A stretch of 64,000 bases of DNA from assembly GCA_963798855.1 (NCBI GenBank), contig CAWCUU010000001.1:629689-693688 (forward strand), given 5' to 3'. The notes beneath the pieces were generated by a model that saw only the letters and a list, made by a program, of their open reading frames with translations, was not told the DNA's origin and made no database searches. A program made the translations under genes and the position numbers. Shown one piece after another: positions 2,760 through 50,603 of the stretch. The stretch comes from an uncultured Gemmatimonadales bacterium (GTDB lineage: Bacteria; Gemmatimonadota; Gemmatimonadetes; Longimicrobiales; RSA9). The stretch's first letter is position 1, and each line of letters begins with the position of its first letter.

Positions 2760-3487
2760 GCACGCGGTCCGGACCCGCGGTCGTGGACAGGGGGGCGCCG
2801 CCCGACACCCCCGCCTACCGCTGGGTCTACCTCTGGCACTGGCCGATCCGCGCGATGCACTGGACGGCCGCCGTCTGCATCGTCGTGCTGGCGGTCACGG
2901 GCCTCTACATCGGGCGCCCGTACTTCATGACGGGAGGGGAAGCCACGCCGCGCTACATCATGGGGTGGATCCGCTTCGCGCACTTCTTCGCGGCCGGCGT
3001 GCTGGTGATGACGGCGATCATCCGCGCCTACTGGCTCATCGCCGGCAACAAGTACGAGAGGGCGCCCGCCCTCTTCCCCGTGCGCAGGCGGGACTGGGTC
3101 AACTTCGGCCGGATGATGAAGTACTACCTGATGATCCAGCCCGAGAAGGCGCCCCACTACCTGGGGCACCATCCACTGCAACAGTTCAGCTACACGCTGA
3201 TCTACATGGTCGCGGCGCTGCAGGTGGTCACCGGCTTCACGCTCTACGGGCTCTACAACCCGAGCGGCCTGTGGTATCGCCTCTTCGGCTGGGTCGGACC
3301 GCTGTTCGGCGGGGTGCAGGATGTCCGCTTCATCCACCACGTCGCGACGTGGGTGTTCCTGATCTTCATCCCCATCCACATCTACCTCGCGACGCGCTCG
3401 GACGTGATGGAGCGCGAGGGCACCATCTCCTCGATCTTCAGCGGCGGCCGCTTCGTGCGCGCCGACCACCACTACGAGGACGAGTGA
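2756..3487 (+). CDS. hupC: Ni/Fe-hydrogenase b-type cytochrome subunit
   Basis: Real start is the ATG at 2756, which overlaps the hupL stop (ATGA). The listed 1205..3487 ORF is a read-through of the same frame. About four predicted TM helices with conserved His residues (WPIRAMHW, RFAHFF, RFIHHVATW, IPIHIY), typical of HyaC/HupC. Confidence 0.9.
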   Translation: MSTRSGPAVVDRGAPPDTPAYRWVYLWHWPIRAMHWTAAVCIVVLAVTGLYIGRPYFMTGGEATPRYIMGWIRFAHFFAAGVLVMTAIIRAYWLIAGNKYERAPALFPVRRRDWVNFGRMMKYYLMIQPEKAPHYLGHHPLQQFSYTLIYMVAALQVVTGFTLYGLYNPSGLWYRLFGWVGPLFGGVQDVRFIHHVATWVFLIFIPIHIYLATRSDVMEREGTISSIFSGGRFVRADHHYEDE

Positions 3488-4244: not shown

Positions 4245-4896
4245 CGTGCGCGAGCGGGTGATGGAGCGCAATGACGAGCTCGCGACCGAGGTGCGCGGCC
4301 TGCTGGCCCGTCACGACATCACGGCGTTCAACCTCGTCTCCTCGCCGGGCGCGGGGAAGACGCTGCTGCTAGAGCGGACGCTCGCCGCGCTCGGCGATGA
4401 GATCCGCATGGCCGTCGTCAGCGGCGACGTGCAGACGAGCAACGACGCCGAGCGGATCGCGCGTCACACGGACCAGCTGGTGCAGGCGGTCGTCACCGGC
4501 GGCGCATGCCATCTCGACGCACGCCAGATCCTGTCCGCGCTCGAAGCCATCGACCTCGATGCGACGGAACTGCTGTTCATCGAGAACGTCGGCAACCTCG
4601 TCTGCCCCGCCAGCTGGGATCTCGGCGAAGAGTCGAAAATCGTGATCTTCTCCACCACCGAGGGAGAGGACAAGCCGTCGAAGTATCCGAAGATGTTCCG
4701 CGAGTCGCGCTACGTCGTGTTGAACAAGATGGACCTGCTGCCCCACGTCGACTTCGACGTGGACCGCGCCGTCGCCCTGGCACGCGAGGTCAACCCCGAT
4801 CTCGAGTTCTTCTTCACCTCCGCTCGAACGGGTGACGGTCTCGACACGTGGTTCGACTTCCTGCGCGCGCGGCTGCGGCACCCCGTCGCTCCGTGA
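4225..4896 (+). CDS. hypB: Hydrogenase nickel-incorporation GTPase HypB
   Basis: P-loop SSPGAGKT, the ENVGNLVCP motif and NKMDL. Start chosen at the ATG at 4225 (MAVRTIDV...); the track ORF begins further upstream at 4183. No His-rich N-terminal stretch. Confidence 0.92.
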   Translation: MAVRTIDVRERVMERNDELATEVRGLLARHDITAFNLVSSPGAGKTLLLERTLAALGDEIRMAVVSGDVQTSNDAERIARHTDQLVQAVVTGGACHLDARQILSALEAIDLDATELLFIENVGNLVCPASWDLGEESKIVIFSTTEGEDKPSKYPKMFRESRYVVLNKMDLLPHVDFDVDRAVALAREVNPDLEFFFTSARTGDGLDTWFDFLRARLRHPVAP

Positions 4897-7154
4897 GCTC
4901 CACGCTGCCCGTCGCTCCGCCCAGGGGCGCCCTCGAGCTCCACGTTCGGGGCGTCGTTCAGGGCGTCGGCTTCGTCGGTCGCAGCGACGAGCGCCTTCCC
5001 GTCTCGCCCGACGTAGCGCTGTGTCCCGCGTGTGAGGCCGAGCTGTTCGACCCATCGAACCGGCGCTACCGCTACCCGTTCATCACCTGTACGGACTGCG
5101 GACCGCGCTATACCGTGATCGAGGCGATGCCGTACGACCGCGAGCGCACCAGCATGCGCGCGTTCGCCCAATGTCCGACGTGCCTCGCCGAGTATCGCGA
5201 TCCCGGCGACCGGCGCTACCACTCGGAGACGAACTCCTGTCCCGTCTGTGGCCCGAGTCTCGTGCTCGTCACCGCCGAGCGTCGCCGGATCGCCGGGGGC
5301 GACGACGCGATCGCCGCGACCGCACGCCTGCTTCGCACCGGCGCGATCGTCGCCGTGCGTGGGCTCGGCGGCTTCCATCTCGCGGTGGATGCGACCAGCG
5401 AAGTGGCCGTCGCGCGCCTGCGTCTGCTCAAGCGGCGCGAGGCGAAGCCGCTCGCGGTCATGGTGAGGACGCTCGAGGAGGCGGCCCGGCTGGTGACTGT
5501 GACCGAGCCGGACGCGGCGCTGCTCGCCTCTCCGGAGCGACCGATCGTCGTCCTCGGCGCGCTGCCGGACTCGCCACTCGCACCGTCCGTCGCGCCCGGT
5601 CTTGTCGACGTCGGCGTGATGCTGGCCTACACGCCGCTGCACCAGCTGCTCCTCGACGCGACGGCGGGTCCGCTCGTCATGACCAGCGGCAACCTGAGCG
5701 ACGAGCCGATCGCGATCGGTAACGGCGAGGCTATCGAGCGCCTCGCCTCCGTCGCGGACGCGTTCCTGATCCACGATCGCGACATCGTCGCCCGCTACGA
5801 CGACTCCGTGCTGAGGCCCGGCCCGGTCGGGCCGATCGTCCTGCGTCGCGCGCGCGGCTACGCGCCGCTGCCGCTCGACCTGCCGGTCGCGACACCCGAG
5901 CCCCTCGTCGCCGTCGGGCCCCAGCTGAAGAACACGTTTGCGCTGGCGCACGAGCGCAGCGCCTACCTGAGCCAGCACATCGGCGACCTCGAGAGCCTGG
6001 AGACGCTCGCGCACTTCCACGACACGCTCGATCGCCTCCGCATGCTGTTCGACCTGCACCCGCGCGTCGCCGTCCACGATCTACACCCCGGCTACCTCTC
6101 CACGCGCATCGCCGCGGAGCTCGGCGTGGAGCGTACGATCCCCGTCCAGCACCACCACGCGCACATCGCGGCCGTCGCCGCAGAGCACGGCGTCGCCTCG
6201 CCCGTCCTCGGCGTCGCGTTCGACGGCACCGGCTACGGCGACGACGGAAGGATCTGGGGCGCGGAGCTGCTCGTCGCCGACCTGCTCGGATACCGCCGTG
6301 TCGCGCACCTGCGCTACGCGCCTCTGCCAGGTGGCGATCTCGCCGCGCGCCAGCCGTGGCGTGCGGCGCTCGGCTTTCTCTCCCTCGAGCCCGGCACCGC
6401 GCCCGCGTTCGCACGCGCGCTCGATCCCGTCGACGAGGTCGAGCGCGACATCGCGACCGCGCAGATCGACCAGGAGCTGAACGCGCCGCTCGCCTCCTCG
6501 ATGGGCCGCCTCTTCGACGCCGCCGCCGCCGTGCTCGGCCTCCGACACCGCTCGCGCTACGAGGGCCAGGCCGCCATAGAGCTCGAGGCCCTGGCCGCCG
6601 AGCGCCCCGCATTCCCGCTGCCGTTCCCGGTCACGGCCGGCGAAGACGGTCGCCGCATCTTCGATCCGCTGCCGCTGCTCTCCGCCCTCGGCGAAGCCGC
6701 GGCCCGCGGCGACGACCCCCGCGACCTCGCCGCCCGTTTCCACGAGAGCATCGCGGCGACCACGGCCGAGCTGACCGTCGAGCTCTGCGCCGACCATCGC
6801 CTCCACACCGTCGCGCTCGGCGGCGGCGTCTTCCAGAACGCACGCCTCCTCCGCTCCCTGTACCGCCGTCTCCGCGCCGCCGGCCTCCGCGTCCTCCTAC
6901 CGCGCCAGCTCAGCCCCAACGACAGCGCCATCAGCTTCGGCCAGGCAGCGATCGCGGCGGCCATTCTGGCCGCAGGGCGAGGGCGAGGGGACGACCTAGG
7001 TCGAGGTCGAGGGCGAGGGCGAGGGCGAGGGCAAGAGGTAGGGCGCGGGCGCGGGCGAGGGCGAGGGCGCGGGCGAGGGCGAGGGCGAGGGCGAGGGCGA
7101 GGGCGAGGAGGCTCGGGGCTGAATGGCGGAGGGGAAGGCCGTGCGGAAAGATGA
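4893..7154 (+). CDS. hypF: Carbamoyltransferase HypF, with a truncated acylphosphatase domain and a C-terminal Arg-Gly repeat tail
   Basis: GTG at 4893 overlaps the hypB stop (GTGA). Only VRGVVQGVGF of the acylphosphatase domain is present, followed directly by two zinc fingers (CPACEAE...CTDCGPRY, CPTCLAEY...CPVCGPS). YrdC-like (VRGLGGFHLAVDA) and Kae1-like domains follow. The tail GRGRGRG... is encoded by the hexamer repeat at 6975-7118. Confidence 0.92.
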   Translation: MSSTLPVAPPRGALELHVRGVVQGVGFVGRSDERLPVSPDVALCPACEAELFDPSNRRYRYPFITCTDCGPRYTVIEAMPYDRERTSMRAFAQCPTCLAEYRDPGDRRYHSETNSCPVCGPSLVLVTAERRRIAGGDDAIAATARLLRTGAIVAVRGLGGFHLAVDATSEVAVARLRLLKRREAKPLAVMVRTLEEAARLVTVTEPDAALLASPERPIVVLGALPDSPLAPSVAPGLVDVGVMLAYTPLHQLLLDATAGPLVMTSGNLSDEPIAIGNGEAIERLASVADAFLIHDRDIVARYDDSVLRPGPVGPIVLRRARGYAPLPLDLPVATPEPLVAVGPQLKNTFALAHERSAYLSQHIGDLESLETLAHFHDTLDRLRMLFDLHPRVAVHDLHPGYLSTRIAAELGVERTIPVQHHHAHIAAVAAEHGVASPVLGVAFDGTGYGDDGRIWGAELLVADLLGYRRVAHLRYAPLPGGDLAARQPWRAALGFLSLEPGTAPAFARALDPVDEVERDIATAQIDQELNAPLASSMGRLFDAAAAVLGLRHRSRYEGQAAIELEALAAERPAFPLPFPVTAGEDGRRIFDPLPLLSALGEAAARGDDPRDLAARFHESIAATTAELTVELCADHRLHTVALGGGVFQNARLLRSLYRRLRAAGLRVLLPRQLSPNDSAISFGQAAIAAAILAAGRGRGDDLGRGRGRGRGRGQEVGRGRGRGRGRGRGRGRGRGRGRGGSGLNGGGEGRAER
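6975..7118 (+). repeat. Tandem G-tract hexamer repeat (GGGCGA/GGGCGC)n, in-frame in the 3' end of hypF
   Basis: Direct reading: gggcgagggcgagggg...gggcgagggcgagggcgagggcaag...gggcgcgggcgcgggcgagggcgagggcgcgggcgagggcgagggcgagggcgagggcgagggcgagg. More than 15 runs of GGG on the + strand. Confidence 0.9.
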
Positions 7155-7159
7155 CCCGG

Positions 7160-7380
7160 TCGCCCCCCGCCGCGAAGCCGGCGCCCCCCGCCGCGAAGCC
7201 GGCGGCTCCCCGCCGCGAAGCCGGCGGCTCCCCGCCGCGAAGCCGGCGGCTCCCCGCCGCGAAGCCGGCGGCCCCCCGCCGCAGGCGGCCCCGCCGTCAG
7301 GCGGCGCCCCGCCGAAAGGCGGCGCCCGGCCCCTCGCGGCCGCGCCCGGCCGCAAGGCCGCGCCCCGCCTTCAAGGCGGC
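7160..7380 (+). repeat. Tandem array of ~10 GC mini-hairpins (REP-like) immediately after the hypF stop
   Basis: Five copies of CCGCCG-CGAAGC-CGGCGG, then CCGCC-GCA-GGCGG, CCGCC-GTCA-GGCGG, CCGCC-GAAA-GGCGG, GGCC-GCAA-GGCC and CCGCC-TTCAA-GGCGG, separated by short C-rich spacers. Confidence 0.85.
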
Positions 7381-7472
7381 AGTAGGGCCTTTCCCGACCC
7401 TATCCGTAGGATATTCGTGGACAGTCTTGAAGGAGATACCATTATTTTTTCTAAAATCGCGAATATGGCTCT

Positions 7473-15129: not shown

Positions 15130-15335
15130 CGCCCAGCCGAAGGCCGGCGCTCCCGGCGCAGCCGCGCCCGGCCGCAAGGCCGCGCCCCGGCGAAGCCGGC
15201 CCCGGCCGCAAGGCCGCGCCCCGGCGAAGCCGGCCCCGGCCGCAAGGCCGCGCCCGGCGAAAGCCGCGCCCGGCGAGAGCCGCGCCCGGCCGTAAAGGCC
15301 GCGCCCGGCCGCAGTGGCCTGCGGCCGCTACGGCG
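15130..15335 (+). repeat. Tandem array of ~12 GC mini-hairpins (same family as 7160-7380) immediately after the ATPase stop
   Basis: GGCC-GCAA-GGCC alternates with CCGGC-GAA-GCCGG (three rounds), then CGGC-GAAA-GCCG, CGGC-GAGA-GCCG, GGCC-GTAAA-GGCC and GGCC-GCAGT-GGCC. GCGCCC spacers. Confidence 0.85.
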
Positions 15336-38810: not shown

Positions 38811-38912
38811 CGCCCTTGCCCCCTGACCCCTTCCCCGCCCGCGACCCTCCCCTATGCCCCTCGTCCCTCCCCTATCCCCTCCTCGCCCTAGCCCTTGCCC
38901 TCGCCCTAGCCC
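38811..38912 (-). repeat. G-tract-rich block (sense strand of the flanking minus-strand genes), related to the GGGCGA repeats at 6975-7118
   Basis: Minus-strand reading: GGGCGAGGGCAAGGGCTAGGGCGAGGAGGGGATAGGGGAGGGACGAGGGGCATAGGGGAGGGTCGCGGGCGGGGAAGGGGTCAGGGGGCAAGGGCG. More than 12 runs of at least 3 G. Confidence 0.85.
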
Positions 38913-38935
38913 TGCGCGCCGCTCCGCGGCGCGCC

Positions 38936-40884: not shown

Positions 40885-42354
40885 ATGGAGGAAGCCACGA
40901 AGACGACGTACGTCCGCCGCCTCTCGTTGTTCGACGGCGTAATGGTCGTCATCGGCGGGATCGTCGGCGCGGGGATCTTCCTGAACCCCGCCATCGTCGC
41001 GCAGCGCGCGGTGACGGCGTCGCTCACGCTGGCCGCGTGGGTCCTCGGCGGCGTGATCGCGGTCGCGGGCGCGCTCTGCTTCGCGGAGCTCGGCGCCCGC
41101 CGGCCCGAGGCCGGCGGCGGCTACATCTACCTGCGTGACACGATGGGGGGCCTGCCCGCCTTCCTGTACGGCTGGACGCAGCTGCTCGTCATCAACACCG
41201 GTGGCATCGCCGCGGTCGCGATCACCTTCGCCCGCTACGCGAGCGCGCTCGCCCACGCCCCCGTCGCCTGGGTCAAGCCGCTCGGCATCGGCGCGATCGT
41301 GCTGCTTTCCGCGGTGAACTACTTCGGCGTGCGACCCGGCGCGACCACGCAGAACATCGCGACGCTGCTCAAGCTCGTCGCTCTCGCTGCGCTGATCGGC
41401 GCCGCGCTGCTGCTCTCGCCCCACTCCGGGCCCACGGCGGTCGAAGCCTCTGTGGCAGGGACGCCCCCGCGCGGCGCGGGGGCGGTGGTCGGCGTCCTCG
41501 GCGCGTCGCTGATCCCCGTCCTCTTCTCCTACGGCGGATGGCAGCACGCGAACCACATCGGCGGCGAGATCCGCGATCCACTGCGCAACCTCCCGCGCGC
41601 GATCATCATCGGCGTGATCGTGGTCGTCGCGGTCTACGTCCTCGCGAACGTCGCCTACCTGCGCGTGCTCGGCCCGACGGGCCTCGCCGCCAGCCTCGCG
41701 CCCGCCGACGACACAATGCGCGACGTGCTCGGTCCGGCCGGCGCCACGTTCATCACCGCCGGCATCGTGATCTCGACGTTCGGGATCACGAACCTGTTCA
41801 TCATGGCCGCCCCGCGCGTCTACCAGGCGATGGCCGACGACGGCCTCTTCTTCCGCTCCGCCGCCCGACTCCACCCGCGCTGGCGAACGCCCGCCGGAGC
41901 GATCGCGTTCCAGGCCGCATGGGCCGTGCTGCTCGCGCTCTCCGGCACCTACGGCCAGCTCCTCGACTGGGTCGTATTCGGCGACTGGATCTTCTTCGGC
42001 CTCGTCGCCGCGACGCTGTTTCGCTACAGGCGCGCCGACGGCGCGGGCGCCGGCCTTCGCCGGGGCGCGGGGCGCGGCTTCGCCGGCGCCCCGGGCGCGG
42101 AGCTTCGCTTCGCGTCGGCTCCGGGCGCGCGTGCTGCGCACGCGGAGCGTCCTGCGGACGGGGGCGGCTTCCGACTGCCGGGCTATCCTTTCGTTCCGGT
42201 CTTCTTCGTGCTCACGGCGGTCTTCGTCGTGGGCAGCTCCGTCGCGTCGAATCCGCGTAACGCCGCGCTCGGAGCGTTGTTGATCGGCGCCGGCATCCCG
42301 GTCTTCCTGTACTGGCGCCGCGGGAGCCGCGGTGGCGGCGAGATTCCAGGCTGA
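40885..42354 (+). CDS. APC-superfamily amino-acid permease carrying an ~40-aa low-complexity insertion
   Basis: Start at the ATG at 40885 (MEEATKTTYVRRLSLFDGVMVVIGGIVGAGIF...). AELGARRPEAGGGYIYL and 12 TM helices. The usual ...RYRR-(short)-FR.PGYP segment is interrupted by ADGAGAGLRRGAGRGFAGAPGAELRFASAPGARAAHAERPADG. Confidence 0.88.
   Translation: MEEATKTTYVRRLSLFDGVMVVIGGIVGAGIFLNPAIVAQRAVTASLTLAAWVLGGVIAVAGALCFAELGARRPEAGGGYIYLRDTMGGLPAFLYGWTQLLVINTGGIAAVAITFARYASALAHAPVAWVKPLGIGAIVLLSAVNYFGVRPGATTQNIATLLKLVALAALIGAALLLSPHSGPTAVEASVAGTPPRGAGAVVGVLGASLIPVLFSYGGWQHANHIGGEIRDPLRNLPRAIIIGVIVVVAVYVLANVAYLRVLGPTGLAASLAPADDTMRDVLGPAGATFITAGIVISTFGITNLFIMAAPRVYQAMADDGLFFRSAARLHPRWRTPAGAIAFQAAWAVLLALSGTYGQLLDWVVFGDWIFFGLVAATLFRYRRADGAGAGLRRGAGRGFAGAPGAELRFASAPGARAAHAERPADGGGFRLPGYPFVPVFFVLTAVFVVGSSVASNPRNAALGALLIGAGIPVFLYWRRGSRGGGEIPG
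42036..42165 (+). repeat. GC mini-hairpin repeat block (reverse orientation of the 7160/15130 family) located inside the APC permease CDS
   Basis: CCGGC-CTTC-GCCGG, GCGCGGCTTCGCCGGCGC, GCGGAGCTTCGCTTCGC, GCGCGTGC-TGC-GCACGCG read directly. The CTTC loops are the reverse complement of the GAAG loops in the intergenic arrays. Confidence 0.65.
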
Positions 42355-44648: not shown

Positions 44649-44793
44649 GTCAGCGCCTGCGGTCAGCGCCTGTGGTCAGCGCCTTGCTTTCAGCGCCTGT
44701 AGTCAGCGCCTGCCTTCAGCGCCTGTAGTCAGCGCCTGCCTTCAGCGCCTGTAGTCAGCGCCTGCCTCTGGCGCCTCACTTCAGCGCCTGCTC
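44649..44793. repeat. ~11 tandem copies of a 13-bp unit (TCAGCGCCTGyrk); the last copy is the 3' end of the M28 peptidase CDS
   Basis: gtcagcgcctgcg gtcagcgcctgtg ... tcagcgcctgtag tcagcgcctgcct (x3) ... cacttcagcgcctgctcc. The final unit encodes ...EQALK-stop on the minus strand. Confidence 0.9.
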
Positions 44794-50487: not shown

Positions 50488-50603
50488 TAGCCTGATTGTG
50501 CGCAGCCTGACCAGCCTGATTAGCCTGACCAGCCTGATTAGCCTGATTAGCCTGACCAGCCTGATTAGCCTGATCAGCCTGATCAGCCTGATCAGCCTGA
50601 CTG
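50488..50603. repeat. ~12 tandem copies of a 9-bp unit (AGCCTGAYY) between cbaA and the zinc-ribbon gene
   Basis: ttagcctgattgtgcgc agcctgacc agcctgatt agcctgacc agcctgatt agcctgatt agcctgacc agcctgatt agcctgatc agcctgatc agcctgatc agcctgact. Confidence 0.9.

Follow-up and report, generated by a model that had tools for sequence, protein, structure and literature searches.

A GC-rich tract in the helix 10-11 loop of a Gemmatimonadota amino-acid permease is related to intergenic mini-hairpin arrays

Can a tract of non-coding repeat DNA sit inside a protein-coding gene and be read through without harm to the protein? This question is raised by a permease gene in a 64,000-nucleotide stretch of DNA from an uncultured Gemmatimonadales bacterium (the whole stretch analysed, referred to here as the window), where a block of short GC palindromes lies within the reading frame. 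A first-pass annotation had taken this block for a mini-hairpin repeat inserted in frame, in the reverse-complement style of two intergenic arrays elsewhere in the window. Its reading of the peptide and the three palindromes it named proved correct, in sequence and in position. The features discussed below are collected in Table 1.

Table 1. Location of the permease gene, the GC-rich block and its parts, and the two intergenic arrays, in window coordinates
Feature	Position	Strand	Basis or remark
Mini-hairpin array 1: a run of five 22-nt units (97% identity) and, after it, variable hairpin units of 16-18 nt	7160..7385	+	
Mini-hairpin array 2: ~11 hairpins; loops GCAA, GAA, GAAA, GAGA, GTAAA; CGCC spacers	15130..15335	+	
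APC/SLC7-type amino-acid permease gene, 489 aa	40885..42354	+	Pfam AA_permease_2, identity with P0001, xCT-type relatives, AlphaFold
Six mini-hairpins that tile the loop, at 42031-45, 42050-63, 42075-85, 42086-98, 42128-44, 42148-60	42031..42160	-	
GC-rich block, 44 codons, residues 384-427, ADGAGAGLRRGAGRGFAGAPGAELRFASAPGARAAHAERPADGG	42034..42165	+	Codon-aligned bounds
Best-estimate extra DNA, ~33-35 codons, bounds uncertain by ~6 nt	42040..42141	+	Alignment with short-loop orthologues
Array-like core, ~2.5 units homologous to array units	42045..42100	-	10-mer sharing, TRF, GCGAAGC
Palindrome CCGGC-CTTC-GCCGG	42050-42063		
Palindrome CGGC-TTC-GCCG	42075-42085		
Palindrome CGCGTGC-TGC-GCACGCG	42128-42144		

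The reading frame of the host gene starts with the ATG at 40885 and runs unbroken across the block. An entry of the protein database, P0001, is identical to the permease over its full length (100% identity) and sits on a 1.89-Mb contig. The Pfam profile AA_permease_2 matched the protein at 5e-46 and 157.8 bits (curated cut-off 27), the AA_permease profile matched at 115.8 bits (cut-off 24.6), and the closest solved structures are those of the SLC7 transporters xCT, b0,+AT and LAT1. By these profile and structure matches, the host gene is a member of the APC superfamily and an SLC7-type amino-acid permease. Its nearest homologues belong to Gemmatimonadota, mainly to Longimicrobiales, with a top identity of 68%; a search of the protein database and of species-representative genomes found no relative above this value.

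We then compared the loop that carries the block, taken as the segment between the motifs TLFxYR and GYP, with that of the 82 orthologues in which it could be aligned. The TM10-TM11 loop comprises 50 residues in this permease and has a median of 15 in the orthologues, with 13 in Acidobacteriota, 12-16 in most Gemmatimonadota and ~10 in the solved xCT structure, which bears out the earlier remark that this loop, preceding the final two helices, is normally short. The alignment with xCT (7ccs_B) breaks at this loop only, where the query passes from residue 385 to 436 while the chain passes from 416 to 426, leaving ~41 extra residues. Against L005 and L029, whose loops are short, the permease shows one gap of 33-34 residues between YR(RAD) and (A)AHAERPADGGGF / AAHAERPADGGGF. 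Aligning orthologues, as the annotation had proposed, thus delimited the extra DNA (Table 1).

Long loops of 26-83 residues are found in many high-GC lineages of Gemmatimonadota, and their sequences are unrelated. An orthologue whose loop was alike in both length and sequence would speak against an insertion; the similar lengths come with unrelated sequences, and the claim of an insertion is not refuted by them. As judged from the alignments, the TM10-TM11 loop is an expansion hot spot in high-GC Gemmatimonadota, which several related lineages have expanded independently. Because long loops are common in the lineage, the extra length is not unusual in itself, and just the array-like, frame-alternating tract described below is specific to this permease.

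The block stands apart from its surroundings in composition. Its GC content is 86%, against 68.6% for the window, and the usual codon periodicity is lost in it: GC at the three codon positions is.93/.80/.84, compared with.68/.52/.93, the normal pattern, in the remaining permease gene. The block has a GC skew of +0.10, opposite in sign to that of the remainder of the gene (-0.09) and of the two arrays (-0.10 and -0.17). Six mini-hairpins tile the loop, the outermost two of which probably overlap native loop codons. Counting non-overlapping hairpins with a stem of at least 4 bp, 0.61 of the block is tiled, against 0.38 ± 0.10 in shuffles, 6 of 500 of which reach 0.61. The hairpins with a stem of at least 5 bp number 6, which is not significant either against dinucleotide shuffles of the block (4.3 ± 2.6) or against the same peptide re-encoded with the codon usage of the permease gene (3.6 ± 2.1). 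The RNA folding energy of the block is likewise not above chance (z = -1.4), and the arrays behave alike (z = -1.7 and -1.1). Since neither the hairpin count nor the folding energy rises above chance for DNA of 85% GC, even in the arrays, we did not take them as support. No Rfam family matched at the gathering score anywhere in the 64-kb window.

The two arrays both lie between genes of the + strand, array 1 between HypF and a multihaem cytochrome gene, and array 2 between a P-type ATPase gene and the gene for an LPG_synthase_TM membrane protein. Their units are 16-25 nt long, keep a single orientation within an array and present the loops GAA, GCAA, GAAA and GAGA on the transcribed strand. 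The stems vary from unit to unit with complementarity kept (CCGCC/GGCGG, CGGCC/GGCCG, CCGGC/GCCGG). Hairpins cover 0.60 of array 1, compared with 0.38 in shuffles (1 of 500), and 0.76 of array 2, compared with 0.39 (0 of 500). The tiled fraction of the block resembles that of array 1. Intrinsic termination, by a GC hairpin and a T-run, was considered as a role for the arrays and rejected, as neither contains a terminator-like site or a T-run.

Comparison of short words revealed a strand-specific likeness between the block and these arrays. The block and the reverse complement of the arrays have 29 9-mers in common, against 6.3 ± 3.9 in dinucleotide shuffles, 21 10-mers against 3.0 and 14 11-mers against 1.3, values that none of 2000 shuffles reached at any of the three lengths. 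On the same strand, just 5 9-mers, 3 10-mers and 1 11-mer are shared. The runner-up site of the window shares 11 9-mers, a nearly threefold gap, and when 10-mers of the loop were sought throughout the window in an unbiased way, the peak fell on array 2, with which the block has its longest exact match, the 16-nt CCGCGCCCCGGCGAAG. The shared 10-mers fall in the array-like core of ~55 nt; beyond this core, the block is degenerate in its 3' half.

The pattern of the array units (stem, G-first loop, stem, CGCC), as seen in array 2, points the same way. Four hairpins of the block follow it, with the - strand loops GTC, GAAG, GAA and GCA, against 0.8 ± 0.9 in shuffles (21 of 2000 reach four), and the block is the top-scoring - strand site of the window for this pattern. 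The motif GCGAAGC occurs 50 times in the window, where 25 copies are expected, and three of these lie in a 37-nt stretch of the block, on the - strand (42077-42113); judged by eye, tight clusters of the motif are confined to array 1, on the + strand, and the block, on the - strand, array 2 having two copies. By these comparisons, the block and the intergenic mini-hairpin arrays of this genome are related as DNA, and the orientation of the block is opposite to theirs. The reverse-complement likeness that the first-pass annotation had noticed is therefore statistically real in its 9-mers, its unit pattern and its hairpin tiling. The block is the sole intragenic array-like tract in the window.

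The repeat itself is organized at the level of DNA. TRF reported for 42033-42108 a head-to-tail repeat with a period of 23-24, 3.1 copies and 79% matches. The hexamer CTTCGC lies at 42055 and 42103 in codon phase 0, where it is read as LR, and at 42078 and 42108 in phase 2, where it is read as (G)FA and (R)FA. With units spaced by 23 and 25 nt, the frame of CTTCGC alternates and is restored by pairs of units only, which marks the repeat as one of DNA and not of peptide. None of the six frames of the block contains a stop, so that a total length divisible by 3 is sufficient for staying in frame. The tract does preserve the reading frame, as had been claimed at first pass, yet this amounts to a weak constraint given the six open frames.

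Nothing in the protein points to decay of the gene. An AlphaFold2 model of the permease, built on an alignment of 26 sequences, has a pTM of 0.85 and keeps the transporter fold, a twelve-helix, LeuT-type helical arrangement in which the cytoplasmic helix 10-11 loop is long. The pLDDT block means are 88-95 for helix 10 and helices 11-12 and drop to 39-47 for the residue blocks 391-420. Translation of the tract would yield a disordered, Gly/Ala/Arg-rich loop with ~35 extra residues; we infer that the tract is translated and that it is probably neutral. The idea that a Gly/Ala/Arg-rich loop had been added agrees with this ~35-residue extension of low model confidence in an intact fold. The helices downstream of the block are conserved with the orthologues.

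Taken together, we favor the reading, to which we give a probability of roughly 0.65, that the block is a short, partly decayed, antisense tract of the tandem mini-hairpin repeat of this genome, carried in frame in the cytoplasmic loop that joins helices 10 and 11. A unit of the tract consists of ~23-25 nt, made up of a GC stem of 4-7 bp, a loop of 3-4 nt and a CGCC-type spacer. For the origin of the tract, we infer a course of three steps. Where GC-rich microhomology allowed template switching or illegitimate recombination, one or a few units may have entered the loop or arisen there. The units would then have multiplied by slipped-strand mispairing, and the tract could have survived because its length is a multiple of 3, no frame contains a stop and the loop tolerates large insertions.

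The nearest orthologue is 68% identical, so import of array units and growth in place by slippage cannot be told apart, and with no closer orthologue to provide an empty site, the event is undated. Neither a target-site duplication nor terminal inverted repeats were found bracketing the block, although a short duplication might be missed, as the bounds of the insert are uncertain by ~6 nt; the direct repeats flanking it are weak (70% identity over 27 nt, and a 12-mer with one mismatch). No transposase domain was found in the 38 window ORFs scanned, a set that passes over ~8 kb without a filter-passing ORF (10.7-13.2, 17.3-21.7 and 59.9-61.5 kb). With no target-site duplication, terminal inverted repeats or transposase found, any mobility of the repeat is putative. 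Furthermore, the native end of the loop, GGGGGCGGCTTC, resembles the unit GGGCGCGGCTTC, a likeness that would also fit a purely local origin. Of the earlier proposal that the repeat family can invade coding sequence, the kinship at the DNA level and the in-frame position hold up; the invasion itself does not follow, import and in-place growth being indistinguishable.

We next weighed whether the loop is an ordinary low-complexity expansion, grown locally from codons for Gly, Ala and Arg in a genome of high GC, with the likeness to the arrays compositional or coincidental and no origin or process in common. The independent growth of the same loop in many relatives would be expected under it, as would a palindrome count and folding energy at chance, and Gly, Ala and Arg codons are themselves prone to form GC palindromes. 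The strand-specific k-mer sharing, on the other hand, exceeds that of all 2000 dinucleotide shuffles and of every other GC-rich segment of the window. The orthologue loops provide natural controls here: with 26-83 aa and 72-88% GC, they are equally GC-rich and have no more than 9 9-mers in common with the arrays, whichever orientation is taken. Nor does the spacing fit, since units of 23 and 25 nt are read in alternating frames, whereas the tandem repeats in the orthologue loops of L002, L025, L042 and L071 have periods of 12, 18, 18 and 21, all multiples of 3. We therefore consider such an expansion unlikely.

A selected functional addition, be it a regulatory or interaction loop or an mRNA element acting in translational pausing or stability, is improbable. 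The ORF is still intact, the loop lies accessible on the cytoplasmic side, and several lineages carry long loops at this place, all of which such a function could explain. These long loops show no sequence conservation among them, though, and the segment is modelled as disordered; at the RNA level there is no Rfam match and the folding is no better than in shuffles, and the reading in alternating frames argues against selection on the peptide. Even less probable is an early pseudogene, in which the insertion would have disabled the permease, as the first-pass annotation had suggested for a first step. A foreign segment of 35 residues between transmembrane helices might well have this effect, but the gene contains neither a frameshift nor a stop codon, its GC3 is still high past the block, the orthologues share the conserved helices 11-12, which are confidently modelled, and even longer loops, of up to 83 aa, are widespread in orthologues; this suggestion was not upheld. 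Finally, an artefact of assembly or of sequencing, arising in a GC-rich repeat, can be set aside almost entirely: the contigs of L019 and L020 end in this loop, a sign that the region is hard to assemble, whereas the protein here lies on a 1.89-Mb contig, the frame is preserved exactly and the tract is identical to neither array, which speaks against a mis-join from them.

Returning to the antisense, partly decayed tract as the preferred reading, we also considered a more far-reaching version of it. The Gemmatimonadota of this lineage could carry an active, undescribed family of GCGAAGC-type tandem mini-hairpins, which would build intercistronic arrays, repeatedly seed the loops of membrane proteins, survive there solely antisense to the intergenic (RNA-active) orientation, and so generate disordered loops. 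We regard this as speculative and rather unlikely. If it were true, the contigs of L019 and L020, which belong to two of the closest orthologues and end within the same loop, would be further occurrences. In the loop fragment of L020, the likeness to the arrays is weak (at k = 9, 86 of 2000 shuffles reach it), and we treat this fragment as no more than a lead.

Palindromic DNA within reading frames has been described in the Rickettsia palindromic elements (RPEs), which occur as in-frame insertions in protein-coding genes (Ogata et al. 2000, as summarised in PMC10969869 and PMC1779305). RPEs have in common with the block that a non-coding palindromic repeat is found both between genes and, in frame, in ORFs, and that a peptide of ~35-50 residues is added at a position compatible with the fold (PMC10969869, PMC1779305). 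An RPE, however, is a single element of 100-150 bp, dispersed in the genome and assigned to one of several discrete families, each with a conserved peptide, whereas the block consists of tandem units of 23-25 nt in alternating frames. The block is also unlike the RPEs in that ~55 nt of it match the arrays, that it is one intragenic case, and that its host is a high-GC member of Gemmatimonadota rather than Rickettsia. Compared with RPEs and MITEs as classes, the arrays and the block together do combine an intergenic with an in-frame location in an ORF. The copies are 16-25-nt tandem units rather than a dispersed element of ~100-150 bp with a full-length consensus, and the terminal inverted repeats and target-site duplication of a MITE were not found. 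Because the features that define an RPE, the discrete element of 100-150 bp and its conserved peptide, are missing, the block works like an RPE insertion and is not an RPE itself. By analogy, in-frame RPE insertion is the closest precedent for the block.

REPs are ~35 nt long, have a conserved GTAG head, alternate in orientation and are mobilised by RAYT transposases. The repeats described here, in contrast, are direct tandem units of 16-25 nt with one orientation per array, and no GTAG head was seen in them. Shared with the REP / BIME repeats are the short, GC-rich, imperfect palindromes, clustered after genes in intercistronic positions, with some intragenic copies (PMC10969869); among the small repeats REP / BIME, ERIC and BOX, some copies lie within ORFs (PMC10969869). 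Coding repeats that arise by slippage resemble the block in their head-to-tail copies within a permissive loop. Their periods are normally 3n and their peptides repeat too, whereas the units of the block, spaced by 23 and 25 nt, correspond to a family of non-coding repeats found elsewhere in the genome; as units that are not multiples of 3, they set the block apart from ordinary coding tandem repeats. The d(GCGAAGC) mini-hairpin of Hirao and colleagues is reportedly an exceptionally stable DNA hairpin. The same GCGAAGC forms the core of units in both arrays; the literature on d(GCGAAGC) deals with the biophysics of a single hairpin, while here the motif stands in tandem genomic arrays.

If the preferred reading, a tract of the mini-hairpin repeat carried in frame, is true, it would extend the notion of selfish DNA inside protein-coding genes beyond its best-known case, the palindromic elements of Rickettsia, to a free-living, high-GC phylum. 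The type of repeat would differ as well, being tandem mini-hairpins with a unit length other than 3n. High-GC bacterial proteins commonly contain disordered loops rich in Gly, Ala and Arg, and for one such loop the reading would offer a concrete source at the DNA level. As this is one case in one gene and any function would be putative, the significance is modest. In practical terms, such tracts break metagenome assemblies, as at the contig ends of L019 and L020, and inflate the apparent divergence of proteins.

A few sites outside the window were followed as candidates and put aside. The long loops of orthologues, compared with their own flanks, showed no clustering, the apparent cluster of L006 being an ordinary coding match, and a hot spot of L071 at 10417 resolved into two short patches, one of them in conserved coding sequence, rather than an array. 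A metagenome scan for three tandem copies of GCGAAGCC proved too unspecific, as most of its 120 matches had 3n periods, which fit coding repeats of the Ala-Lys-Pro type; in L088 and L102, the scan picked up short intergenic repeats of period 22 without the hairpin pattern. Arrays comparable to those of the window are rare in 1.2 Mb of DNA from relatives, where L019 carries one example at ~2980-3250.

Throughout the high-GC Gemmatimonadota, the TM10-TM11 loop, the cytoplasmic permease loop that hosts the hairpin tract, is a hot spot for expansion (L002, L025, L042, L057, L071 and other loci in relatives). Among the permease orthologues its length varies between 11 and 83 residues, with a median of 15, and the loop sequences are unrelated to one another. 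Tandem repeats occur inside several of these loops; their periods, 12-21 nt, are all multiples of 3, as exemplified by PAGSVTPAGSVTPANSATPAG in L042.

L019 and L020 are among the nearest orthologues, at 67-68% identity, and the contigs of both break off within this same loop. The L020 contig ends in GC palindromes, and its loop fragment shares a 15-nt exact match, in + orientation, with array 1, the intergenic mini-hairpin array downstream of HypF, together with a weak enrichment of array k-mers (p about 0.04). These contig ends may represent another repeat tract at the TM10-TM11 loop, or they may reflect an assembly break in low-complexity DNA.

L019, a Longimicrobiales relative, also contains an irregular mini-hairpin array, intergenic as judged by eye, whose units resemble CCCGC-GAA-GCGGG and are separated by GGAGCCC-type spacers. 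Its presence suggests that mini-hairpin repeats of this class belong to the lineage and are not confined to the genome of the window. The window as a whole has 50 copies of GCGAAGC, known to form an exceptionally stable DNA mini-hairpin, where 25±5 would be expected; about 10 of these occurrences fall within the two intergenic arrays and the permease tract, the others being scattered over both strands.

HypF is the second protein in the window that is lengthened by repeat DNA. At its C-terminus, a hexanucleotide repeat is translated in frame into a (Gly-Arg)n tail; the last HypF domain ends before this tail, at residue 699 of 768. The repeat is found a short way upstream of array 1, and array 1 itself is located at the 3' end of the NiFe hydrogenase cluster with which the window starts.

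Hydrogenase operon and repeat features in the window and in related loci
Feature	Location	Description
NiFe hydrogenase operon	window 1-7154	genes for the small and large subunits, followed by ORFs that carry HycI protease, HypA, HypB/CobW and HypF domains
AGGGCG x 22.5	window 6974-7108	inside ORF 4848-7154 (+)
CCTAGC x 5.5	window 38837-38913	adjoins a 20-nt repeat
18-nt direct repeat	window 41964-42000	permease gene; encodes DWVVFG/DWIFFG, helix 10
Tandem repeat, 13/26-nt unit GTCAGCGCCTGCCTTCAGCGCCTGTA	window 44649-44791	about 5-11 copies; in gap of approximate ORF map
Tandem repeat CAGCCTGAT x 11	window 50503-50600	in gap of approximate ORF map
DWVVFG/DWIFFG-type direct repeat	L004 1430-1464	permease orthologue
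Mini-hairpin array	L019 2980-3250	
GC palindromes	L020 3386-3438	final 53 nt of contig

Short tandem repeats are unusually abundant in the window. Those at 38,837, 44,649 and 50,503 are further, unrelated repeats. The direct repeat in helix 10 of the permease is shared with L004 and is thus an old, conserved peptide-level duplication, separate from the hairpin tract.
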